A DNA stretch of 63,825 bases, filler included. It is 4 parts of 4 records of this genome, joined end to end, with 100 filler letters (N's around TTAATTAATTAA, not from the genome) between each part and the next. Parts side by side here need not be neighbours in the genome. Positions count along the whole stretch, not along the records: positions 1 to 23,455 come from DRR723986_3408; 3 more parts are not named here. One strand, 5' to 3'. The notes below the pieces were generated by a model. It saw nothing but the letters and a program-made list of their open reading frames with translations, was not told the origin of the DNA and made no database searches. The stretch's first letter is position 1; each line of letters starts with the position of its first letter. Both the position numbers and the translations under genes were made by a program. Below are positions 7,522 to 18,680 of this stretch, piece after piece.

Positions 7522-8106
7522 ATGGCTTTTGAATTACCTGCACTGCCTTACGACAAAAACGCACTTGAGCCCCACATTTCAGCGGAGACCCTGGACTTTC
7601 ACCACGGCAAACACCACAACGCCTACGTGACCAAGCTGAACGAACTGACGGCCGGTACCGACAACGAAGGCAAGTCACTGGAAGAAATCATCAAATCGGC
7701 AAGTGGCGGCCTGTTCAACCAAGCAGCCCAGGTTTGGAACCACACTTTCTACTGGAACAGCCTGAGCCCCAACGGCGGCGGCGCACCAACTGGCGAGCTG
7801 GCAGCAGCCATCGACGCTAAGTTTGGCTCCTTCGACGAGTTCAAAGCCGCTTTCAACGCTAGCGCAGTCGGCAACTTCGGCTCTGGCTGGACCTGGCTGG
7901 TAAAAAACAGCGATGGCAGCCTCGAAATCGTTAACACCGACGACGCTGACACACCTATCGCTCGCGACGGTCAAACGCCATTGTTCACCGCCGATGTTTG
8001 GGAGCACGCCTACTACATCGACTACCGCAATGCTCGCCCCAAGTACCTTGAAGGCTTCTGGAACTTGGTGAACTGGGAATTTGCTGCCGCTAACTTCGCA
8101 GCCTAA
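7522..8106 (+). CDS. sodB: Superoxide dismutase [Fe]
   Basis: [20 protein letters not shown] (Fe-type signature), DVWEHAYY. Confidence 0.96.
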
Positions 8107-8130
8107 TCCCCGCGACACTGCGTGTTGCAG

Positions 8131-8154
8131 AACCCCACTTCGGTGGGGTTTTTT
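8131..8154 (+). terminator. Rho-independent terminator of sodB
   Basis: AACCCCAC-TTCG-GTGGGGTT followed by TTTT. Confidence 0.85.
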
Positions 8155-8263
8155 GTATCTGCCTCCCGCGCCCCCTCACCTCACCACTCCGTCGCCACAA
8201 CAGCATTTAGCGCGGGCGCCCAGTATACGCGCTTACACCCTCGTCACCAGGACAGTCACCCAC

Positions 8264-8301
8264 AAAAAAGCCCGATCACCTTGCGGTCATCGGGCTTTTT
8301 T
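8264..8301. terminator. Bidirectional terminator downstream of the peroxiredoxin gene
   Basis: AAAAAAGCCCGAT...ATCGGGCTTTTTT. Confidence 0.8.
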
Positions 8302-8335
8302 AGGAACTTGCGGCTCGCGCCGCAGAGTCGCCGTA

Positions 8336-8938
8336 TTACAGCTTGTCAGAGTTCTCTGACAGGTAAGCCGCTACACCAGTCGGTGATGCGTCCATACCTT
8401 TGTCGCCTTTATTCCAGCCAGCAGGGCAAACTTCACCGTGCTCTTCGTGGAATTGCAGTGCCTCAACCAAACGCACCAGCTCATCGACGTTACGGCCGAG
8501 AGGAAGGTCGTTAACCAGCTGAGAGCGAACCATGCCTTCTTTGTCGATCAGGAACGCGCCGCGGAATGCCACGCCACCTTCAGCTTCAACGTCATATGCA
8601 CGGCAAATGTCGTGACGCACGTCAGCAGCCATGGTGTAGGTCACAGGACCGATGCCGCCATCTTTGATAGCAGTGTTGCGCCAAGCGTTGTGAGTGAATT
8701 GAGAGTCGATCGATACACTGATCACCTCAACACCCAGCTCGCGGAATTTGTCCATACGGTGATCCAGAGCGATCAGCTCTGAAGGGCAGACAAAGGTGAA
8801 ATCCAGCGGATAGAAGAACAGAACCGCGTATTTGCCTTTAGCCGCTTCGCTAAGCGTGAACTCATCAACGATCTCGCCGTTGCCAAGTACTGCCGCACAT
8901 GTGAAGTCAGGAGCTGGTTTACCTACGAGTACACCCAT
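8336..8938 (-). CDS. ahpC: 2-Cys peroxiredoxin (AhpC/TsaA type)
   Basis: FFYPLDFTFVCPSE and GEVCPAGW. Confidence 0.95.
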   Translation of the reverse strand: MGVLVGKPAPDFTCAAVLGNGEIVDEFTLSEAAKGKYAVLFFYPLDFTFVCPSELIALDHRMDKFRELGVEVISVSIDSQFTHNAWRNTAIKDGGIGPVTYTMAADVRHDICRAYDVEAEGGVAFRGAFLIDKEGMVRSQLVNDLPLGRNVDELVRLVEALQFHEEHGEVCPAGWNKGDKGMDASPTGVAAYLSENSDKL

Positions 8939-9111
8939 GATGTTTACCTCCGGTTGTTTTCATTAGACAGTGCAATCACGCACTCTTAAAAAGGAGTAGA
9001 CCGGCAATCATACACGCCGTCACAAACCAATCCCATTGAAAATTCTAATCGCCCCCATAGCCTGCAACTATGGCAAAACCGACTAAAAAACCCGAATACC
9101 CAAAAAGACAA

Positions 9112-9140
9112 TTGACAAGCATTCTCATTTTCATTAACTT
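9112..9140 (+). promoter_or_regulatory. sigma70 promoter of bfd overlapped by a Fur-box-like site
   Basis: TTGACA (9112-9117), 17 bp spacer, TAACTT (9135-9140). The minus strand reads AATGAAAATGAGAATGCTTGTCAA, resembling the Fur 7-1-7 repeat TGATAAT-N-ATTATCA. Confidence 0.7.
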
Positions 9141-9181
9141 TAGAATCCTGAACACAACGACACCACACAGGTTCCAGCAAC

Positions 9182-9379
9182 ATGTACGTTTGTCTCTGCA
9201 AAGGCATTACCGATACACAAATTCGAGAAGCGATGGACAATGGCACCAGCAGCTTCCGTGAATTGCGCCGTGAACTTGACCTCGCCAGCCAGTGCGGAAA
9301 GTGCGGCTCCCTGGCTCGCAGTGTCTTTGACGCCCATCTCAGCAACTATGACGAATCCCTCTGTTACGCCGTTGCCTAA
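9182..9379 (+). CDS. bfd: Bacterioferritin-associated ferredoxin
   Basis: MYVCLCKGITD...QCGKC [2Fe-2S] motif; upstream of bfr. Confidence 0.96.
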   Translation: MYVCLCKGITDTQIREAMDNGTSSFRELRRELDLASQCGKCGSLARSVFDAHLSNYDESLCYAVA

Positions 9380-9514
9380 GCCGAAAAGCAATTGAGAACG
9401 ATTGGCTTTACCCTTCTAACATACCATTTAAAATCAACAACTTAGCTTGACTCACCCCCATAGCGCGTCCACACTATTGGCTATTCATACGCCACGTTAA
9501 TTAAGGACACAGCA

Positions 9515-9997
9515 ATGAAAGGTGACGCTCAGGTTATCGCCCATCTCAATAAGGCACTTGGCAACGAACTGGTCGCCATCAACCAGTATTTTCTGCATGC
9601 GCGCATGTACGAGGACTGGGGCCTGAAAGAGCTCGGCGAGCACGAATACCATGAATCCATCGACGAAATGAAACACGCTGACAAGCTGATCAAGCGTATT
9701 TTATTTTTGGAAGGCATTCCCAACCTGCAAGACCTTGGCAAACTGATGATCGGCGAAAATACCAAGGAAATGCTCGAGTGCGACCTCAGCCTGGAGCTGA
9801 AAGCCGTACCGGATCTGAAAGAAGGCATTAAGTATTGCGAATCAGTTGGAGACTTCGGTAGCCGGGAGCTGCTTGAGGAAATTTTGGAGTCTGAGGAAGA
9901 GCATATCGACTGGCTGGAAACTCAGCTGGGCCTTATCGAGAAAGTAGGCATCCAAAACTACCAGCAATCCGTTATGGGCGGCCTTGGCGACTCATAA
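9515..9997 (+). CDS. bfr: Bacterioferritin (heme-binding type)
   Basis: [24 protein letters not shown] (heme-ligand Met present), EEEHIDWLE. Confidence 0.97.
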
Positions 9998-10009
9998 GCC
10001 GCCACCGCA

Positions 10010-10050
10010 AAGAAAGAAGGGCCGCTCTTTATTGGAGTGGGCTTTTTTTT
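10010..10050. terminator. Terminator between convergent bfr and the hotdog gene
   Basis: Imperfect GC stem GCCGCTC...GAGTGGGC with a T8 tail and an A-rich left flank. Confidence 0.65.
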
Positions 10051-10055
10051 GCGTG

Positions 10056-10523
10056 TTAGTTCTTCGGCTTCACCGGCGACACATGCATGCTGATCTCAGC
10101 GGTGAAGACAACCGTACCATCTTCCTCCTTTACCTCGACCTGCACCGGCACTTCGCCTTTTTCACCCACTTCTATTTCCCGCATGCTCGCATAGCCGCGC
10201 AACACCCCTTTAGCAGGCTTTAAATAACGTACCGTCATTCCGGCGGGGATCCAACGCATACCTTTGGGCATTGATACTTCGGCAGTCATTCCGCCAACGA
10301 CCTCGGCCAGGTTACAAAGCGCGATCGCATGAACCGTACCAATGTGATTGTGAATAGAGCGACGCTCACGAATTCGCACCACCCCATAGCCAACACCCAA
10401 CTCTTCAAAACGCGGAGAGATCGTAGAGAAGTAAGGCGCTTTCATGCATATCGCCTTAGAGAAAGCCAGCTTGCCACCGGGGTACGCTGACAACTTACGC
10501 CACATTTTCAATACAGAATTCAT
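10056..10523 (-). CDS. Hotdog-fold (PaaI/DUF4442-like) thioesterase family protein
   Basis: APYFSTI, HNHIGTVHAIALCNLAE, MRWIP..MTVRYLKPAKG. Confidence 0.85.
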   Translation of the reverse strand: MNSVLKMWRKLSAYPGGKLAFSKAICMKAPYFSTISPRFEELGVGYGVVRIRERRSIHNHIGTVHAIALCNLAEVVGGMTAEVSMPKGMRWIPAGMTVRYLKPAKGVLRGYASMREIEVGEKGEVPVQVEVKEEDGTVVFTAEISMHVSPVKPKN

Positions 10524-10680
10524 AACACTACCTCCAGAACAAGGTCATCAGACTAGCACCGCCCCCGCGTCAGGCCATTGACCCCAAATTCTGGATGCGG
10601 CGAATTTACAGCCATAGAAACCTCCCCGCGGCCACCGTCGCGGCATCATCACAATCAGGCCAAATAATAACTACAATGCA

Positions 10681-10700
10681 GTTGATAATTAATCTCATTA
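10681..10700. promoter_or_regulatory. Fur box upstream of the lipoprotein/imelysin/TonB receptor operon
   Basis: TGATAAT-T-AATCTCA at 10683-10697 matches 12 of 14 positions of TGATAAT-N-ATTATCA, about 90 nt before the ATG. Confidence 0.8.
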
Positions 10701-10785
10701 TGAAGTAGAGTTACACCCTCGCGTGCAGCAAGGCAAAATAGTTGCGCACCTCTTTTCCAACCATGAGATAACTTGAGCAGACAAT

Positions 10786-12270
10786 ATGAGTAAACGCACA
10801 CTGATTTCAGCGACGATAGCTGCTTCTGTAGCAACCCTTGCCGCATGCGGTGGCGGTGGCGGCGGCGGAAATGGCGGCGGCAACGGCAACTCAGGTCAGC
10901 CCAATATCCCAGAGACGTACAGCTTCGAAAGCAAGATCACTGCTGGCGCAAGCGCGGTAAGCTACACCGGGCAAACGGCTCGCCAGCTGTTGATTGCGGA
11001 CCTTGTTATTGCCTTAAACGCTCTGCAGGACAACCCCGGTGCAACGCCCGCCTCAGTTGAGAACGACCTGGATTTCTACATCGGTGGCAATGTTGATTCC
11101 ACTAACTACAGCTACAGCATCAGCGGCCAAACCTTAATTCCCGGGCCGACCTACGGCGACATTTCCACCGGCAAAAACCTCGACGGCAAGATTGCCGGCG
11201 GCAATGGAACCGGCGGCGGTGAAACCAGCAAATTAATTGGTAACGAGTTTTTTGGCTGGGGTGAATTAAGCAGCAACGCCCTGCCCATCGACCTGGTCGA
11301 CCTATTTATCGAGCGCGTCGCCAATGAAGCGACTGATGGCGTTGACCCACAAATTGCCACTACAGGCGGTAACGCCAATATTGGCACCGTCACCGTCGAC
11401 TCAGAGGGCCGCGACTACCGCCAGCTGATCCAGAAATTCCTGCTGGGTGCAGTCACCTTCTCTCAAGGCACTAACGACTACCTTAAAACCGACTTTTCTG
11501 ACGACGACAATCACCTTCAGGACGGCAGCAAACCCTACACGTTTGCCGAGCACAAGTGGGACGAGGCCTTTGGCTACTTCGGTGCAGCGCGGGACTACAA
11601 CAGCTACAGCGACGCAGACATTGCCGGCGATGCGTTCTTCAAAGACAGCAACGACGATGGCAGCATCGACTTACGCAGTGAGGTGAACCTCGCCAATTCA
11701 ACAAACTGTGCCAAGCGCGACAAGGGTAGCCAAACTGGCACCGATTTCACGAAAACCGTGTTTGACGCCTTCAAAGCGGGCCGCTTTATCCTGAACGAAG
11801 CCGCGACAAACGGCGGCCTCAGCGCTGATGAATTGAGCGAACTGAATACGCAAATTGAAATCGCGGCAAAAACCTGGGAAAAATGCATCGCCGCCACGGT
11901 GGTTCACTACGTGAACGATGTTCTTGGCGATATGGATAATTTCGGCAACGGTGTTTTCGCAGACCGAGACAACTTCCTTGATCTCGCCAAGCACTGGAGC
12001 GAAATGAAAGGCTTCGCGTTGGGCTTGCAGTTCAGTCCCTACTCCCCTTTCCGCGATGGCAGCGTCTCGGGCGCCAACCTTCAGAACCTCAAGGACTTGC
12101 TCGAAAAAATGGGTGATGCACCCGTGTTAGCCGACGGCTCACAAAATGGCAACGCGCCAACCGGCACTGCTCAGCAAGCCATTGATGCCTACCGTCAAGA
12201 CTTGCTGTCTATTCGTAGTACACTGCAAACCGCTTACGAGTTCGAAAGCACGGACGTCGAAAACTGGTAA
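10786..12270 (+). CDS. Lipoprotein, probably DUF4856 family
   Basis: Lipobox LAAC, Gly-rich linker, then SYTGQTAR, HKWDEAFGYFG and HWSEMKGF motifs. The family name is from recognition, not a search. Confidence 0.7.
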   Translation: MSKRTLISATIAASVATLAACGGGGGGGNGGGNGNSGQPNIPETYSFESKITAGASAVSYTGQTARQLLIADLVIALNALQDNPGATPASVENDLDFYIGGNVDSTNYSYSISGQTLIPGPTYGDISTGKNLDGKIAGGNGTGGGETSKLIGNEFFGWGELSSNALPIDLVDLFIERVANEATDGVDPQIATTGGNANIGTVTVDSEGRDYRQLIQKFLLGAVTFSQGTNDYLKTDFSDDDNHLQDGSKPYTFAEHKWDEAFGYFGAARDYNSYSDADIAGDAFFKDSNDDGSIDLRSEVNLANSTNCAKRDKGSQTGTDFTKTVFDAFKAGRFILNEAATNGGLSADELSELNTQIEIAAKTWEKCIAATVVHYVNDVLGDMDNFGNGVFADRDNFLDLAKHWSEMKGFALGLQFSPYSPFRDGSVSGANLQNLKDLLEKMGDAPVLADGSQNGNAPTGTAQQAIDAYRQDLLSIRSTLQTAYEFESTDVENW

Positions 12271-12301
12271 TGGCGAGCTAACGTAAATAAGCACATCTGA
12301 T

Positions 12302-12323
12302 AAAGGCGCTCTATGCGCCTTTT
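12302..12323 (+). terminator. Intra-operon hairpin (weak terminator or mRNA stabiliser)
   Basis: AAAGGCGC-TCTAT-GCGCCTTT-T. Confidence 0.6.
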
Positions 12324-12345
12324 GTTCGTTTAGACGAGATTCTTT

Positions 12346-13599
12346 ATGAAAGCCCTTGTGAACTCCCGATCAAAAACCATTGCGAGCGTGTTCGCACTGT
12401 CACTGTCGCTAACCGCCTGCGTCGACGACAGTGGTGGTAACAGCACTAAGGTCAACGCCGATAATTTTGACTTCGTGCGTATGCTGGCCAACTACGCCGA
12501 CAACATTATCATCCCCAATTACCAAGACGCGGCGCAGCAAAGTGCTCAACTCGGTGACGCAAACGGCGCCATTGCGGAATACTGCAGCGCAATCGATACC
12601 GCTCAAGAAAGTGCCGCGCTCACCAATGCACAGCTGCAGTGGCAAGAGACGATGGATGCCTGGCAGCTTACCGAGCTCCACCAACTCGGCCCCGCCACAG
12701 ACAACAACAGTGCGCTGCGCAACCGCGTGCTATCTTTTTCCAGAGGCAACCCTCTCAGCAGCTGCGGCGTAGACCAGGCCACCGTACTGGCCTCTACTGA
12801 CAGCAGCTTTGATCTTGCGAGCCGCCCGACCAACCAACGCGGCCTGGGCGCAGTGGAATATCTGCTGTTTGAAGATGACCTAAACCACACCTGCCCAAGC
12901 CAAATTCAAGAAACCGCTGACTGGAACCAACGCCCAGAAGCCGAGCGCAAAACGCTGCGCTGTAACTACGCCCTGCTGTTGGCCGAAGACGTAAGCAATG
13001 CCGCCAACAGCATCGCTGAGGCCTGGGCCACGTCGTCTGGCAACTACCGCTCCACATTCGTTAACCCCGCCAATGCTGGCAGCAACACTAAAGCGCTTTC
13101 AGACGCACTGTTCTATCTCGACACAGAAACCAAAGATGCCAAGCTGGGCATTCCACTGGGCATTAGCGCCAGTTGCAGTCAGCCGGCCTGCCCCGAAGTG
13201 ACCGAATCGCCCTACGCCGAGCACAGCCTCCGCAATGTAGAAAGCAACCTCAACGCCTTTATCACACTGATTAATGGCGGCAGTGGCTTGGGCTTTGATG
13301 ACATTATTAATCAGGCTGGCGTGAGCACCGTCACGGAACTCTTGCTGGATAATACTGCGGCGGCGCTGGCGGAAATCGACGCGATATCCGTTTCGCTCTC
13401 AGAGCAGGCTAGCGGCATCACCAGCTCAGCGGATGAGTCAGCCTGCGCAACGGCCGCAGATAACCCTGACGGCGCCCGAGACATTCCCGCCTGCAATGTT
13501 TACGGCTACATACGCCGTATTACAGACACCCTGAAAGTAGGATTTGTTGCCGCGGTAGACGTCGATTTACCCGATCGCGCCCAATCGGACAATGACTGA
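12346..13599 (+). CDS. Imelysin (peptidase M75)-like lipoprotein
   Basis: Lipobox LTAC; ADNIIIPNY, QWQETMDAWQ, RGLGAVEYLLF, KLGIPLG, ESPYA and terminal SDND are typical of the family. Confidence 0.85.
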   Translation: MKALVNSRSKTIASVFALSLSLTACVDDSGGNSTKVNADNFDFVRMLANYADNIIIPNYQDAAQQSAQLGDANGAIAEYCSAIDTAQESAALTNAQLQWQETMDAWQLTELHQLGPATDNNSALRNRVLSFSRGNPLSSCGVDQATVLASTDSSFDLASRPTNQRGLGAVEYLLFEDDLNHTCPSQIQETADWNQRPEAERKTLRCNYALLLAEDVSNAANSIAEAWATSSGNYRSTFVNPANAGSNTKALSDALFYLDTETKDAKLGIPLGISASCSQPACPEVTESPYAEHSLRNVESNLNAFITLINGGSGLGFDDIINQAGVSTVTELLLDNTAAALAEIDAISVSLSEQASGITSSADESACATAADNPDGARDIPACNVYGYIRRITDTLKVGFVAAVDVDLPDRAQSDND

Positions 13600-15775
13600 G
13601 ACAACCTCCATGAAACTACATTACGTACTCATCGCCGCCGCGCTTTCTCCAGCAGCTGTGGCGGAAAGCCAACGCCAACCTGAAGAAGTTCTGGTAACCG
13701 GCGGGCGAAATGCCATATCAAACCTTGCGGGCTCTGCACAGATTATCGACGAAGAGATGCTTGAACAGTTCGATTACTCGGATTTGAATCAAGTCATGTC
13801 TGCGCTGCCCGGCGTGTATATTCGCGAAGAAGACGGTTACGGTCTTCGCCCGAATATCGGCATACGCGGGGCCACGTCCGAGCGCAGCCAAAAAATCACC
13901 ATCATGGAAGACGGCGTACTGATCACGCCCGCGCCCTACAGTGCACCCGCGGCGTACTATATTCCCAATATCAGCCGCATGAGCGCCGTAGAGGTTGTGA
14001 AAGGCCCATCGGCGATTTACCACGGCCCGCATACCGTGGGCGGCGCGATTAACTTTGCGACCCGCGCTATCGCCATCGACCCAGAGAGAGAAGTCGATGC
14101 CACCTTCGGCAGCGACAACTACCAAAAATACCAACTCTATAGCAGCGAAACGCTGACAACCGCCGACGGTAGTGAACTGGGCTATGCCATCGATGCGCTG
14201 CGCTTTAGTGGTGACGGCTTTAAAGAGCTCGATGGTGGTGGTGATACCGGGTTCGTGCGAAACGACATCAATCTCAAATTCAGCCTTCGCCCTGCCTCAG
14301 CACAAAACCAGCTGTTCACCCTCAAACTGGGTTTCGCCGATGAGGAAGCAGATGAAACCTACCTGGGCCTAACCACCGAAGACTTTAACGACGATCCCTA
14401 CCGGCGTTACCGCGCCAGTCAACTTGATCGGTTTACCTCCGAACATAGCCAGATTCATTTAAGCCACGCCTTCGAAGTTTCGGAGAATGTGCAACTCAAC
14501 AGTGCGGTTTACTGGAACCAGTTCGACCGCAGCTGGAACAAACTTGATGGCTTTATCGACGGCGTGGCTATTCGCGATGTCCTGAACTTCCCGGATGTGT
14601 TTACCCGTGAACTCGGCATTCTGCGCGGTGAAATCAACTCGGATGGCAGCGACAGCGACATGCTCGACGTGACCAATAATGACCGCGAGTACGGCTCAAT
14701 GGGCATTCAGTCCTCCGTTACATACCGCACCAGCTGGGGCGAAGCCGAGCACGAAATCCAGACTGGGCTGCGCATGCACCACGACTACGTGGAAAGGGAC
14801 CACAGTATTCGCGGATACCTGATGACCGATGGCAACATGGTCAATGACGGGCAACAGCGTGGCAGCAAGGTTCGTAACGAAGCGAGCACCGATGCCATTG
14901 CCTTGTATGTTGTCGACACCATCCAATGGCGAGACCTTCGCTTTACCCTGGGTTTCCGTCACGAGAATATCCGCGGGGACAACGAAGACTTCCTAACCGG
15001 TACCGACAACGACAAGTCGCAGTCCATTACCCTGCCTGGCGCCGGTGTATTCTGGCAGCTCAATGAACAGCTCGGCCTGCTTGTTGGCATTAACCGCGGA
15101 TTTTCCCCCGCCGCTCCCAGTGCCGGCAGCAATGTAGACCCCGAAGAGAGCACCAACCTGGAATACGGGCTGCGCTTCGAGCAAGACAATTTGCAACTGG
15201 AAGCGATTGGCTTTTTCAGCGACTACGAAAACCTGCTCGGTCGCTGTCGCGTCAGTGATCCCGGCTGCACACCCGGCGAAGAATTCAACGGCGACAATGT
15301 TGAAATTGCCGGTCTCGAACTAACCGGCCGATGGGACATGCAACTTGCTGCGGGCCTCAATGGCGCCATCGGGTTTTCATACACCTATACCGAGAGCGCA
15401 TTCCAAACCGACTTCAGCAGCAGCTTCTCCCAGTGGGGCGACGTTGAAGCGGGTGACGAACTGCCATATCTACCCAAACACGTAGGCCAATTGCAGCTCG
15501 CTGTGCGCGGTTCCAGCTGGGAAGCCAGTACCGCCATTAGTCACCAAAGCGAAATGCGAGATCAGGCTGGCGATGAGTCGCTTTCGCAGGTACGCCACAC
15601 CGACGCGTATACCACCGTGGACAGCTCAGTCAGCTGGTTCCTCGACGAGCACTGGACGCTACAAGTGAGCGTCGACAACGTATTGGATGAAGAAGCCGTC
15701 GTTTCCCTGCGTCCCTTCGGCGCCCGCCCCAATAAGCCAAGAACGGCGCGATTGCGCGTGAAGTACCAATTCTAG
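13592..15775 (+). CDS. TonB-dependent receptor (FecA-like)
   Basis: Signal peptide, EEVLVTG TonB box, EEDGYGLRPNIGIRG plug, VEVVKGP, C-terminal YQF. The start may be 13610. Confidence 0.93.
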   Translation: MTETTSMKLHYVLIAAALSPAAVAESQRQPEEVLVTGGRNAISNLAGSAQIIDEEMLEQFDYSDLNQVMSALPGVYIREEDGYGLRPNIGIRGATSERSQKITIMEDGVLITPAPYSAPAAYYIPNISRMSAVEVVKGPSAIYHGPHTVGGAINFATRAIAIDPEREVDATFGSDNYQKYQLYSSETLTTADGSELGYAIDALRFSGDGFKELDGGGDTGFVRNDINLKFSLRPASAQNQLFTLKLGFADEEADETYLGLTTEDFNDDPYRRYRASQLDRFTSEHSQIHLSHAFEVSENVQLNSAVYWNQFDRSWNKLDGFIDGVAIRDVLNFPDVFTRELGILRGEINSDGSDSDMLDVTNNDREYGSMGIQSSVTYRTSWGEAEHEIQTGLRMHHDYVERDHSIRGYLMTDGNMVNDGQQRGSKVRNEASTDAIALYVVDTIQWRDLRFTLGFRHENIRGDNEDFLTGTDNDKSQSITLPGAGVFWQLNEQLGLLVGINRGFSPAAPSAGSNVDPEESTNLEYGLRFEQDNLQLEAIGFFSDYENLLGRCRVSDPGCTPGEEFNGDNVEIAGLELTGRWDMQLAAGLNGAIGFSYTYTESAFQTDFSSSFSQWGDVEAGDELPYLPKHVGQLQLAVRGSSWEASTAISHQSEMRDQAGDESLSQVRHTDAYTTVDSSVSWFLDEHWTLQVSVDNVLDEEAVVSLRPFGARPNKPRTARLRVKYQF

Positions 15776-15785
15776 GCCAATAATT

Positions 15786-16727
15786 GTGGAGAGCGTTCTG
15801 GATGCCATTTTGTCGCCGCTATCGATTACCCTCGATCCCGGCCGGCGACTATTTTGGCTCTTTCTTCTCTCCTCGCTGGTACTGGCGTCTATCACCGTTG
15901 CCGTGCAACAGCGCCGCTTTGACCTGAGAGAACAACTCCGCTCACTGGGCAATCGGCGCTACTGGTTTAATCGCTCGACAGCGACTGACGGAGGCCTGCT
16001 GTTTCTCAACAGCCTGATCCGAGGCAGTCTGCTTATTCCTTTGCTCGGCAGTCACTTGGCAGGCACCATCTTGGTTGGCAGTTGGCTGCAAAGCCAGTTC
16101 GGGGACGCCCCCTCGCTCAACCTTGCCCCGGCGCTGATCGCCATCACGTACACCGTGGTGTTTTTCATCACCGAGGACTTTAGTCGCTTTGCCCTGCATA
16201 CCGTCATGCATAAATTCCCGGTGCTGTGGCATTTTCACCGCACGCATCACAGCGCCACAACACTCACGCCATTAACGGTGCACCGTGTACACCCCGTTGA
16301 AATGGCACTGTATTACCTGCGCGGCCTGGTCGTTTTTAGCGTGATTAGTGGTAGCTTCGTCTACCTGTTTCGCGGCCAGGTATCGGGCGTCGCGATTCTC
16401 GGCGTCGATTGTCTTGGCTTTTTATTTAATGCCCTCGGCGCAAACCTTCGGCATTCACATATTTTCTTGAGCTTTGGCCGATTGGAACGCTGGTTCATCA
16501 GCCCCGCTCAGCACCAAATCCATCATTCCAGTGCCGTTGAACATCAAGACAGGAATTTCGGTACCTGCCTGGCGATATGGGATCGCCTATTGAATAGCTG
16601 GACGCCAGCGGGCCAGCGGCGCGATTTCAGCTTTGGCCTCACTGAGCAGGCCCGCTCCGAAGCCACAAAAAACCCGGCTCTAGGGCCGGGTTTTCAAGAG
16701 ACGTACTTGCAAGCAAAAAGGAGTTAA
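15786..16727 (+). CDS. Sterol desaturase / fatty acid hydroxylase family membrane protein
   Basis: Hydrophobic helices plus His boxes HTVMH, HRTHH, HRVHP, RHSH, HQIHH and RNFG. Confidence 0.88.
   Translation: MESVLDAILSPLSITLDPGRRLFWLFLLSSLVLASITVAVQQRRFDLREQLRSLGNRRYWFNRSTATDGGLLFLNSLIRGSLLIPLLGSHLAGTILVGSWLQSQFGDAPSLNLAPALIAITYTVVFFITEDFSRFALHTVMHKFPVLWHFHRTHHSATTLTPLTVHRVHPVEMALYYLRGLVVFSVISGSFVYLFRGQVSGVAILGVDCLGFLFNALGANLRHSHIFLSFGRLERWFISPAQHQIHHSSAVEHQDRNFGTCLAIWDRLLNSWTPAGQRRDFSFGLTEQARSEATKNPALGPGFQETYLQAKRS
16667..16694. terminator. Terminator of grxD, lying inside the 3' end of the desaturase ORF
   Basis: AAAAAACCCGGC-TCTAGG-GCCGGGTTTT. Confidence 0.7.
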
Positions 16728-17056
16728 CCTTCCGCCGCCTCGCCAGCTGAGGTTTCTTTCAGCAGGGTTTGCAGCTCACCGCTCTCATACATTTCACATA
16801 TGATGTCGCAGCCGCCAATCAGTTCGCCCTTAACCCACAACTGGGGGAAGGTCGGCCAGTTAGCGTACTCAGGCAGTTTTGCGCGAATATCGGGGTTAGA
16901 CAAAATATCCACAAAGGCGAATCGCTCGCCACAACCCATCAGTGCCTGAGAGGCGCGTGCAGAGAAGCCACACTGAGGCTGATTGGGTGAACCCTTCATA
17001 TAGATAATGATGGGGTTGTTTTCGATTTGCTGTTTAATTGCGTCGATCGTATCCAT
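16724..17056 (-). CDS. grxD: Monothiol glutaredoxin (Grx4)
   Basis: YMKGSP..PQCGFS, WPTFPQLW, GGCD; start ATG 17056. Confidence 0.96.
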   Translation of the reverse strand: MDTIDAIKQQIENNPIIIYMKGSPNQPQCGFSARASQALMGCGERFAFVDILSNPDIRAKLPEYANWPTFPQLWVKGELIGGCDIICEMYESGELQTLLKETSAGEAAEG

Positions 17057-17147
17057 TGAGTACCTGCCGTATCGGCGTCCGGCAAACCGATGAGTAAAAG
17101 CCCGGACCATTTCAGAGCGCTATTCTAACAATTCCCGGCGCGAAAAG

Positions 17148-18680
17148 TCATGCCTGCCCCCAGCCACCCCCGCCGGGCGTGGCAATGCGCAAGCGGTCAC
17201 CGGGCTTTGCCAGCGCACTTACTTTTGCTGGTAAGCGCTCGCCATTCAGGCTGTTTTCCCCGCAGCGACCCGCGTCCCCCCCTTGCAAGCCCCAGGGCGC
17301 GACATAGCGGCGCTCGGTAAGCAAGGTAAAGCGCGCGGTCGCCAGGAATTCAAACTCGCGCACCAGGCCGTCGCCTCCGCAATGCCGCCCGCCGCCACCG
17401 CTGCCGCGGCGCAGGCTGTATTGGCGAATGCGCAACGGGTAGTGCATTTCCAAGCTCTCCACCGGGGTGTTCAGCGTATTGGTCATATGGCACTGCACAC
17501 CACTCAGTCCAGCTCCCTCGGCATGACCGCCGCTCCCCCCCGCCAGGGTTTCATAGTAGTGCCAGGGCTCGCCCTCTAACGAGCCCATCGCCACATTGTT
17601 CATGCTGCCGTGCGCTGCGGCGGGAATGCGCTCCGGCAGAGCCTGCGCGAGTGCGCCCAATACCGCGTCGCACGCGCGCATAGAGGTTTCGACATTGCCC
17701 GCCGCCACAGCCGCCGGCCGCCGTGCATTCAGCAGGCAACCTTCGGGAACACGAAGACTAATGGGGCGGAACAAGCCCGCGCATACCGGCGCCTCATTGG
17801 GCATCAGACATCGAAACGCGTAATACACCGCCGCTGCAGCCACTGACCGCGGACAGTTAATATTGCCCGGTACTTGTTCAGCGGTGCCGGTAAAGTCCAC
17901 CGTCGCCCGGCCGCCCCCCAGGGACAACAACACCTCAATCGTCAGGTTTTTCTGAACAAAGCCATCATCGTCCATAAGGTCTTGAAAACGGTACTCCCCA
18001 GCCGGTAATTCGGTTAAGCGGGAGGTCGCCAACTGCTCGGCATACGCCTGTAACTGAGTAACGGCCGCAGGAAACGGCAGCGGCAACGCCTCGACAACCT
18101 CGGCTAAGCGCGTCAGGCCACAGCGGTTCGCGCTAAGCTGGGCGACAAAGTCGCCGTGCTCACCCTCGCCAAACCATTCGTCCAGCAGGTGTCGCTGAAC
18201 AACACCATCGCGCTGCAATAGCGTGGGCGGGATCACAACGCCCTCTTCATCCAGGCTTTTTGACAGGGGCATCGAGCCCGGCGTTGAGCCGCCAATATCC
18301 GCGTGATGGGCGCGGTTCACAACAAATGCCAGCAACTCGCCGTGCAAAAAATACGGCGCAATGACCGTGACATCGGGCAGGTGGGTACCGCCAAGAAACG
18401 GGTCATTCAGCACCAACATATCGCCTTCTGACCAGTCGCAGGCGCCGACAATATCGGCCATCGCATAGGCCATACTACCGAGGTGAACGGGAATATGCGC
18501 CGCTTGTGCACACAGCGCGCCACCGGCATCAAAGATGGCACAGGAAAAGTCGAGCCGGTCTTTAATATTGGGTGAAAAAGCCGCCCGCTGCAGTACCGCT
18601 CCCATTTCCTCGCATACCGCTTCCAGGCGGCTTACGAAGAGCCCGAGTTTCACTGGGTCGAGCTGGGCGGTGTGAGTCAT
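17148..18680 (-). CDS. Hydantoinase B / 5-oxoprolinase subunit B family protein
   Basis: FSPNIKDRLDFSCA, HIPVHLGSM, NDPFLGGTHLPD, HHADIGG, HMTNT, TPGGGGWG. Confidence 0.93.
   Translation of the reverse strand: MTHTAQLDPVKLGLFVSRLEAVCEEMGAVLQRAAFSPNIKDRLDFSCAIFDAGGALCAQAAHIPVHLGSMAYAMADIVGACDWSEGDMLVLNDPFLGGTHLPDVTVIAPYFLHGELLAFVVNRAHHADIGGSTPGSMPLSKSLDEEGVVIPPTLLQRDGVVQRHLLDEWFGEGEHGDFVAQLSANRCGLTRLAEVVEALPLPFPAAVTQLQAYAEQLATSRLTELPAGEYRFQDLMDDDGFVQKNLTIEVLLSLGGGRATVDFTGTAEQVPGNINCPRSVAAAAVYYAFRCLMPNEAPVCAGLFRPISLRVPEGCLLNARRPAAVAAGNVETSMRACDAVLGALAQALPERIPAAAHGSMNNVAMGSLEGEPWHYYETLAGGSGGHAEGAGLSGVQCHMTNTLNTPVESLEMHYPLRIRQYSLRRGSGGGGRHCGGDGLVREFEFLATARFTLLTERRYVAPWGLQGGDAGRCGENSLNGERLPAKVSALAKPGDRLRIATPGGGGWGQA

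Follow-up and report, generated by a model that had tools for sequence, protein, structure and literature searches.

In Neisseria, the TonB-dependent receptor TbpA and the lipoprotein TbpB take Fe(III) and pass it to the periplasmic binding protein FbpA and an ATP-binding cassette (ABC) importer. Imelysin operons that are regulated by Fur and contain no permease have been reported in Pseudomonas aeruginosa (PA4370-PA4373) and Vibrio cholerae (VC1264-VC1266; PMC3143127). The adjacent genes RAYM_09779-RAYM_09794 of Riemerella anatipestifer encode a receptor, a vitamin K-dependent gamma-carboxylase, an imelysin lipoprotein and a hypothetical protein; a Fur study of this species gives WT-Fe/WT+Fe ratios (WT, wild type) of 2.11-3.07 and classes them as Fur-regulated in its Table 4 (PMC5609570). 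Here we describe a related locus in a stretch of DNA of 63,825 nucleotides (nt) composed of four joined parts (hereafter the window), along which all coordinates are counted. Four genes on the same strand encode a DUF4856 lipoprotein, an imelysin-family lipoprotein, a TonB-dependent receptor and an integral-membrane protein of the FA_hydroxylase family (Table 1). We propose, with a probability of roughly 0.65, that this cassette is a Fur-repressed ferric-iron acquisition module, which hands iron to a separately encoded importer and includes an oxygenase as partner.

Conservation of the four-gene unit

The initial annotation of the window had suggested that the four genes form one system, and searches with the hydroxylase together with neighbourhood clustering showed that they indeed co-occur as a conserved unit. 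As same-genus comparison set we used 25 Spongiibacter/Zhongshania genomes. An orthologue of the hydroxylase (67-80% identity) is present in only four of them, and in each of these carriers the cassette is complete, with its gene order and its place in the bfr-to-grxD region unchanged. A wider scan, with the hydroxylase alignment against one genome per species, returned 50 loci, 46 of which at an E-value of 1e-50 or better. The gene order of the window is kept on one strand in 34 of these 46 loci. When the open reading frames (ORFs) of the 46 loci were clustered, each of the four families appeared in 36-43 loci and every other family in nine at most, although these counts are not independent events because the loci are related to one another. 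In particular, three of the same-genus loci lie on contigs that recur in this set as L018, L019 and L057. Neither an FTR1-type permease nor a DyP-type peroxidase is found among the conserved neighbours of the 46 loci.

The other arrangements are of several kinds. The contig ends at the imelysin gene in L024, L040 and L057, and L061 is too short for gene order to be judged. A locus from Myxococcota (L062) hosts all four genes in the order DUF4856-imelysin-hydroxylase-receptor. Only the DUF4856-hydroxylase pair is present in L060 (Thiothrix) and L063 (Arcobacteraceae), only the receptor-hydroxylase pair in L031 and L049, and L058 has a binding-protein gene after that of the hydroxylase. L050 and L052 have the hydroxylase gene next to grxD, with an imelysin gene a few kilobases off, which in L052 is part of a cluster formed by imelysin, di-haem oxidoreductase (PF06537) and imelysin. 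The adjacency of hydroxylase and grxD, convergent in the window (15786-17110) and in tandem in L050 (8211-9987) and L052 (8442-9906), persists where the lipoprotein and receptor genes are missing; it may be synteny that has been retained, or point to a functional link with iron trafficking. In L062, a metagenome-assembled genome, hydroxylase and TonB-dependent receptor share a single frame of 1066 residues with no stop between them (8779-11979), and a typical Sec signal peptide (...KFGVHTALITLITFCSLNIAYA/DENED...) lies at the joint. The joined frame may encode a precursor that signal peptidase cleaves; otherwise it is an assembly error.

A search that started from DUF4856 gave a similar picture. 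Relatives of the DUF4856 protein of the window are present in 8 of 300 evenly drawn gammaproteobacterial genomes, a tally that includes the unpublished G441. Leaving G441 out, we annotated nine loci from seven gammaproteobacterial genomes. The hydroxylase gene is adjacent to DUF4856 in six of the nine (L105, L106, L107, L109, L110 and L111), and neither hydroxylase nor HTTM is adjacent in two (L112 and L113). TonB-system genes follow or face the cassette in L105 (1215-3364) and L106 (2589-3702), with DUF3450 and ExbB in one and ExbD and TonB in the other. The DUF4856-related proteins form at least 1762 clusters, mostly metagenomic.

A second version of the cassette occurs in Bacteroidota, where 13 of the 101 sampled genomes have a DUF4856 gene. 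We took ten loci and annotated eight of them, leaving out L085 and L087 because their ORF layouts duplicate that of L084. Six of the eight have the order DUF4856-imelysin-HTTM+VKGC_lumenal-receptor; L091 is uninformative and L092 contains DUF4856 alone. In the latter (7790-9734 of the metagenome-assembled genome G042), the lone DUF4856 gene lies beside an opposite-strand gene for a peptide-modifying enzyme of the MbnB/TglH/ChrH type, and the same genome has a hydroxylase relative on a separate short contig (L061). One gammaproteobacterium (G264; L108:759-7859) hosts a copy of this Bacteroidota-type cassette, with DUF4856, imelysin, an HTTM/VKGC-like enzyme, a DCC1-like thiol-disulfide oxidoreductase and a receptor; the additional oxidoreductase may serve to recycle the HTTM enzyme. 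Since HTTM occurs in the place of the hydroxylase, two unrelated polytopic membrane enzymes, both from O2-using families, fill the same role in the cassette.

In the open literature that we searched, with the supplementary tables of transcriptome papers outside the scope, we found no description of the four-gene unit and no paper on DUF4856 or on imelysin with HTTM. This agrees with the initial view of the system as undescribed.

Four proteins and a route for iron

All Pfam assignments exceed the curated cut-offs. The first protein matches PF16148 with 60.5 bits (cut-off 22.3) over residues 178-386, and the second matches PF09375 with 88.7 bits (cut-off 23.5) over residues 55-354; no NCBIfam model matches either of them. 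That both are lipoproteins, as first annotated, is borne out by the lipoboxes that we read by eye in the translations, LAAC in DUF4856 (C21) and LTAC in imelysin (C25). Both cysteines are at least 90% conserved in the family alignments.

In the DUF4856 protein, Cys21 is followed by a Gly-rich tether and, further on, by the invariant motif EHxWDEAFGY. When DUF4856 proteins associated with the hydroxylase, with HTTM and with Fbp-type genes are aligned, H256, D259 and E260 of the motif are invariant in all three forms, as are further residues that include Y45, G62, Q63, R66, K135, G263, Y264 and R333. The motif is also common to the Bacteroidota members, which score 228-486 bits, and the proteobacterial forms have an extra EF-hand-like loop (D287-E299). 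The tether is variable: Gly-rich in the window (10848-10886), it is replaced by thrombospondin type 3 repeats, a PPC domain or a cadherin domain in many relatives (P0022, P0033, L107:1126-3069). The AlphaFold2 model of the protein is mostly helical, with residues 1-37 disordered and a predicted local distance difference test (pLDDT) score of 91. Foldseek returned no match to this model at an E-value of 0.001 or better in the PDB, and with VIA-align wide the best Z was 7.6, from generic helical bundles, with no imelysin among the 50 rows listed. The absence of a clear solved match does not show that the fold is new. A likeness of DUF4856 to imelysin could not be shown, as profile comparison with hhalign aligned only the signal peptides. 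The predicted complex of DUF4856 (residues 38-494) and imelysin (residues 26-417) scored 0.00, which bears neither for nor against binding.

The imelysin protein does not contain the GxHxxE motif of the canonical ICMP/IrpA/EfeO subfamilies: the corresponding stretch reads GLGAVE, with no His. It therefore belongs to the GxxxxE class, described as the IPPA/PA4372 type by Xu et al. 2011 (PMC3143127), and its alignment shows eight conserved Cys and an invariant C-terminal SDND. The receptor has both a plug (Plug, 53.9 bits) and a barrel (TonB_dep_Rec_b-barrel, 142.1 bits). Its first description as FecA-like stands, FecA being the nearest solved relative (E 1e-31 over residues 39-314), with scores under the cut-offs of both the FecA model NF041676 (141 bits, cut-off 1100) and the siderophore receptor model TIGR01783 (180 bits, cut-off 223.5). 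Since the plug begins at residue 43, the receptor has no N-terminal signalling extension.

The fourth protein matches PF04116 with 77.4 bits (cut-off 31). The initial annotation had recognised a His-box membrane protein and thought of it as an unusual inner-membrane partner in iron capture. The membrane protein is confirmed, and it is an intact oxygenase rather than a candidate permease. All three His boxes are intact (HTVMH, HRTHH and HQIHH), and ten His are invariant in 43 relatives (H138, H142, H151, H154, H155, H169, H223, H243, H246 and H247). Retention of these residues makes it very probable that the hydroxylase is active. The ESM Atlas returned only clusters annotated as 'sterol desaturase family', sequence searches of the PDB gave nothing useful for DUF4856, imelysin or the hydroxylase, and the structure model of the latter, built from six sequences, was poor (pLDDT 56) and was not used.

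The only curated family touched by the hydroxylase is the ornithine-lipid hydroxylase OlsE (NF052566; 44.3 bits, E 1.4e-11). As every characterised member of PF04116 acts on lipids, and several hydroxylase paralogues are present in the same-genus genomes, the enzyme might remodel membrane lipids (ornithine lipids, phospholipid acyl chains or lipid A) and be merely co-regulated with iron uptake. We regard this as unlikely. The OlsE score is far under the equivalog cut-off of 475 bits, and the hydroxylase gene stays beside DUF4856 where receptor and imelysin genes are missing (L060, L063 and L111). Moreover, a non-homologous membrane enzyme, HTTM, takes the corresponding place in Bacteroidota, and in the Myxococcota locus an internal signal peptide joins hydroxylase and receptor within one reading frame.

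Several variant loci associate DUF4856 with genes for ferric-iron import. L111 has the order DUF4856-hydroxylase-Fe-type binding protein-double permease-ATPase, L113 the order DUF4856-permease-ATPase, and in L112 DUF4856 is next to a binding-protein gene. A binding-protein gene also adjoins the DUF4856-hydroxylase pair of L063, and feoAB lies 3 kb from the pair of L060. In L060, L063 and L111, the signal peptide of DUF4856 is of the ordinary kind, with no lipobox Cys. The occurrence of such unanchored forms in operons without a receptor suggests that the core function of the family is probably periplasmic, rather than capture at the surface. The initial idea that the two lipoproteins capture iron for the receptor is to that extent not supported in its first form. 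All five same-genus genomes that were searched, including G001, which has no cassette, encode elsewhere a homologue (42-50% identity) of the binding protein of L111. A route across the inner membrane is therefore available, if not proven to be used, and the permease missing from the window is probably an FbpABC-type importer encoded elsewhere.

FbpABC-type systems import unchelated Fe(III), and the presence of the DUF4856-hydroxylase pair in such receptor-less operons bears on a further possibility, namely that the substrate of the receptor is iron in lipophilic form, for example haem or an amphiphilic (acylated) siderophore of marine origin, which the lipoproteins bind and the oxygenase oxidises in the inner membrane, freeing the iron. 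The enzyme family does work on hydrophobic substrates embedded in the membrane, the siderophore and dicitrate receptors are the nearest to our receptor, and the cassette contains no reductase or esterase gene. These operons nevertheless point the other way, as do the receptor score below the siderophore-receptor cut-off and the lack of conserved genes for siderophore synthesis or siderophore ABC import near the 46 loci. In addition, two imelysin-like proteins bound neither haem nor ferric ion in thermofluor assays, as reported by Xu et al. (PMC3143127). Overall, import and oxidation of a lipophilic ligand seems to us quite improbable.

Iron control, context and history of the locus

To score Fur-like sites we counted the positions that match a 19-base Fur consensus of the E. 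coli type. The sequence GATAATTAATCTCATTATG upstream of the DUF4856 gene matches 15 of the 19 positions on the reverse reading and 14 on the forward one. It is the best Fur-like site of the 63.8-kb window, it overlaps a promoter-like sequence (Table 1), and none of 50 shuffles reaches a score of at least 15. A search of the window for the consensus with up to three mismatches found nothing, so that 'near-consensus', as the site had initially been called, is an overstatement: the match is good only. In five same-genus carriers, the regions upstream of the cassette have otherwise diverged, and the invariant columns cluster on the Fur-like site, which is the only conserved island. Sites of at least 15/19 occur within 400 nt upstream of the DUF4856 gene in 17 of 37 loci and in 22 of 740 random segments of 460 nt drawn from these loci, an enrichment that is overstated in comparison with AT-richer intergenic DNA because the random segments are mostly coding. 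The loci with such sites include those of Myxococcota (17/19), Arcobacteraceae and Thiothrix (both 15/19). These observations make Fur-type control of the cassette, which had also been proposed at first, likely. The second-best Fur-like site of the window (14/19; 9114-9132) lies about 50 nt upstream of bfd (9182-9379), which precedes bfr. The bfd gene is a classic Fur target.

Three variant loci give hints of a link to molybdenum or to porin-based uptake. In L110 (1898-10255), the genes for hydroxylase, DUF4856 and receptor, in this order, are beside NifQ, ModE and ModA; in L050 (8992-15332) and L052 (8974-17059), the hydroxylase gene is beside an outer-membrane barrel of the Alginate_exp type, and L052 also has ModA-like and ModE-like genes. 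These neighbours would fit a cassette that serves another metal (molybdate, tungstate or the mixed need of nitrogen fixers) and has incidental Fur-like sites. We consider this very improbable. It would concern just these three variant loci, of which L050 and L052 also hold imelysin, in L052 within the iron-type imelysin/di-haem cluster. Fur-like sites are enriched upstream of the DUF4856 genes; the neighbours are bfd, bfr and grxD in the window and FbpABC or FeoAB elsewhere; and the apparent Riemerella counterpart is reported to be induced by iron restriction (PMC5609570).

The features of the locus are listed in Table 1. The initial annotation had placed four co-oriented genes here, and their ORF positions are confirmed, together with an 8-nt overlap of the imelysin and receptor reading frames and a 10-nt spacing between receptor and hydroxylase. 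A gap of 75 nt separates DUF4856 from imelysin, and the stem-loop within it is a possible attenuator or transcript-stabilising hairpin. The family scan covered 57 of the 60 window ORFs of at least 100 residues. Neither a di-haem oxidoreductase nor a DyP peroxidase, an FTR1 permease or an ABC transporter is encoded in these 57 ORFs, in agreement with the initial annotation. Upstream of the cassette are genes for an amidohydrolase, rnt, sodB, peroxiredoxin (prx), bfd, bfr and a DUF4442 thioesterase-like protein, and downstream of it are grxD, a hydantoinase-B gene, a second receptor gene, an aminotransferase gene and argF. The conserved backbone first described for this region is roughly recovered, in the form of amidohydrolase, rnt, sodB, prx, bfd and bfr, then grxD and argF.

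Table 1. Coordinates of the cassette, its upstream signals and the corresponding slot of the nearest genome
Feature	Position	Strand	Description or basis
DUF4856 lipoprotein gene	10786-12270	+	494 residues; Pfam PF16148 and translation
Imelysin-family (Peptidase_M75) lipoprotein gene	12346-13599	+	417 residues; Pfam PF09375 and translation
TonB-dependent receptor gene	13592-15775	+	727 residues; Plug and TonB_dep_Rec_b-barrel
FA_hydroxylase-family integral-membrane di-iron oxygenase ('sterol desaturase family') gene	15786-16727	+	313 residues, GTG start; PF04116
Fur-box-like operator GATAATTAATCTCATTATG	10684-10702	.	consensus match 15/19
Sigma-70-like promoter, TTGATA-18 nt-TAGAGT	10682-10711	+	consensus scan, 9/12 positions; pattern match only
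Stem-loop, 8 pairs (5 G-C)	12302-12322	+	terminator-like scan; inside the 75-nt DUF4856-imelysin gap
Segment differing from the nearest genome, G001	10561-16663	.	blastn against locus L017, and tblastn
G001 slot features	L017:9564-9632 and 9908-11992		hydroxylase 3' relic beside alternative receptor gene

The cassette had at first been taken as inserted between bfr and grxD. Comparison with G001, the nearest genome compared, whose flanking proteins are 97-100% identical, speaks for a different history. When the window was aligned to the G001 locus (L017) with blastn, the flanks were 95.9% and 97.2% identical, with break points at 10560 and 16664. The intervening segment is replaced in G001 by 2.6 kb with one unrelated TonB-dependent receptor gene (35% identity) on the opposite strand, upstream of which the Fur-like sites are weak (13/19). 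On the right, the break falls within the hydroxylase gene, of which G001 keeps the last 64 nt (a 23-residue match, 83%). This indicates that the cassette is older than the replacement in G001. In G005 the cassette is on the other side of the DUF4442 gene, and it adjoins grxD in other families too (L021, L026 and L038). We also considered the cassette as a mobile island and rejected this reading: no flanking repeats were found at the break points, the GC content (0.54-0.57) does not deviate from that of the flanks (0.49-0.61), and no integrase or transposase gene is nearby among the scanned window ORFs. With the G001 relic and the grxD adjacency elsewhere, the claim of an insertion is not supported in its first form. 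These comparisons suggest that the cassette has long resided in a variable slot for iron genes and that most relatives have lost or replaced it, with no recent insertion.

Of the sequence runs that a search returned, 16, mostly labelled as marine or seawater metagenomes, contain 50% or more of the words sampled from the stretch. Parts of the stretch are also contained in three marine metatranscriptome runs from two studies, whose contigs, 95-100% alike, cover parts of the DUF4856, imelysin and receptor genes. Contig X17 record 16 (15609-15842) spans the junction of receptor and hydroxylase, with 167 and 57 letters per side, and X17 record 12 (11550-12367) crosses the stem-loop. No contig from the three RNA runs was found on 15867-16520, the body of the hydroxylase gene, or on 17175-18482, the hydantoinase gene, although such holes prove nothing. 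These contigs are compatible with transcription in the sea, without proving it.

Proposed mechanism and known systems

Gene context suggests the following course of events. Under iron starvation, the receptor would bring iron across the outer membrane, probably as inorganic or weakly complexed Fe(III) and not with a classical siderophore. The two lipoproteins, tethered to the outer membrane, would handle the iron on the periplasmic side, where DUF4856 may contribute its invariant His/Asp/Glu motif and imelysin would act as a His-less GxxxxE type. The iron would then pass to an FbpA-type binding protein and an ABC importer encoded elsewhere. The FA_hydroxylase protein would be active as a di-iron enzyme that depends on O2, belong to the module as an integral component and be the functional counterpart of the Bacteroidota HTTM enzyme. 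Its most likely job would be chemistry on DUF4856, or on a ligand or cofactor that DUF4856 carries, rather than iron transport.

Several points weigh against this proposal. To our knowledge, all known FA_hydroxylase (PF04116) enzymes act on lipids and have their di-iron site on the cytoplasmic face, which makes the action of the oxygenase on DUF4856 the weakest step; lipid chemistry on this face fits poorly with an exported protein as substrate. For the hydroxylase version of the cassette, iron regulation is predicted from sequence patterns. Scored with the E. coli-type consensus, the four orthologous loci of the genus reach only 12-13/19; in 20 of the 37 loci the score is below 15/19, and the relatedness of the loci and the mostly coding random segments, as mentioned above, lessen the weight of the counts. 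RAYM_09794 of Riemerella is a putative DUF4856 protein, an assignment that is inferred from other Bacteroidota loci. The three variant loci with the hydroxylase near molybdate genes leave some small room for a metal other than iron. Finally, the contigs of the RNA libraries can derive from carried-over DNA, and a contig that spans two genes is no proof of a single transcript.

A more speculative idea, and in our view a doubtful one, is that the hydroxylase here and HTTM in Bacteroidota are protein-modifying enzymes, which install a metal-chelating residue on DUF4856 or imelysin. The residue may be a hydroxylated side chain in the first case and gamma-carboxy-glutamate in the second. Protein modification would explain why two unrelated O2-activating membrane enzymes are interchanged in the cassette, and why the Myxococcota oxygenase is in one frame with an exported partner via an internal signal peptide. 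If true, the exported protein would have a built-in, high-affinity site for Fe(III), as a protein-borne chelator that replaces the secreted siderophore.

In the ocean, iron limits bacterial growth widely, and the uptake of siderophore-free iron by heterotrophs is poorly understood. The cassette is widespread and occurs in marine RNA libraries, and half of its four proteins lack an assigned role. If iron uptake by the Fur-repressed module that we propose does require a di-iron membrane enzyme that uses O2, this would be a new piece of iron biology. The interchange with an enzyme similar to vitamin K carboxylase offers a testable handle on the roles of both enzymes in bacteria.

The locus shares with the ferrous-iron uptake system EfeUOB an imelysin-like (M75) periplasmic domain and a redox enzyme (PMC3143127). 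However, the window lacks EfeU (the FTR1 permease), EfeB (the peroxidase) and the cupredoxin domain of EfeO, and its own system acts at the outer membrane, by way of a TonB-dependent receptor. With the operons PA4370-PA4373 and VC1264-VC1266 the locus shares Fur control (likely here), an imelysin lipoprotein that includes the His-less GxxxxE member and the lack of a permease in the cluster. These operons have in turn a GxHxxE imelysin and a di-haem oxidoreductase (DUF1111/DHOR), and no dedicated receptor, DUF4856 or membrane oxygenase; conversely, PF06537, which lies between two imelysin genes in clusters of the PA4370-PA4373 type, has no match in the 57 window ORFs.

The HTTM cassette of Bacteroidota resembles the locus in its DUF4856 protein with the EHxWDE motif, its imelysin lipoprotein, its receptor and its one polytopic inner-membrane enzyme. 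It also responds to iron, as seen in the apparent Riemerella counterpart, whose genes are listed with no study of their function (PMC5609570). In Bacteroidota, however, the HTTM + VKGC enzyme precedes the receptor gene, whereas in the window the FA_hydroxylase, from an unrelated family, follows it. With the FA_hydroxylase superfamily, for example OlsE, the fourth protein has in common the di-iron set of His-box motifs and the class of membrane topology; it differs from OlsE in its score (44 bits against a cut-off of 475) and in its gene context, which is that of iron uptake and not of lipid synthesis. The relay from TbpA/TbpB to FbpA in Neisseria differs from the locus in that its lipoproteins are unrelated in sequence, it has no membrane oxygenase, and it uses a host-protein ligand that is not expected in seawater. 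Nevertheless, the hand-over that we propose, from receptor to lipoproteins and then to an FbpABC-type importer, would follow the same logic.

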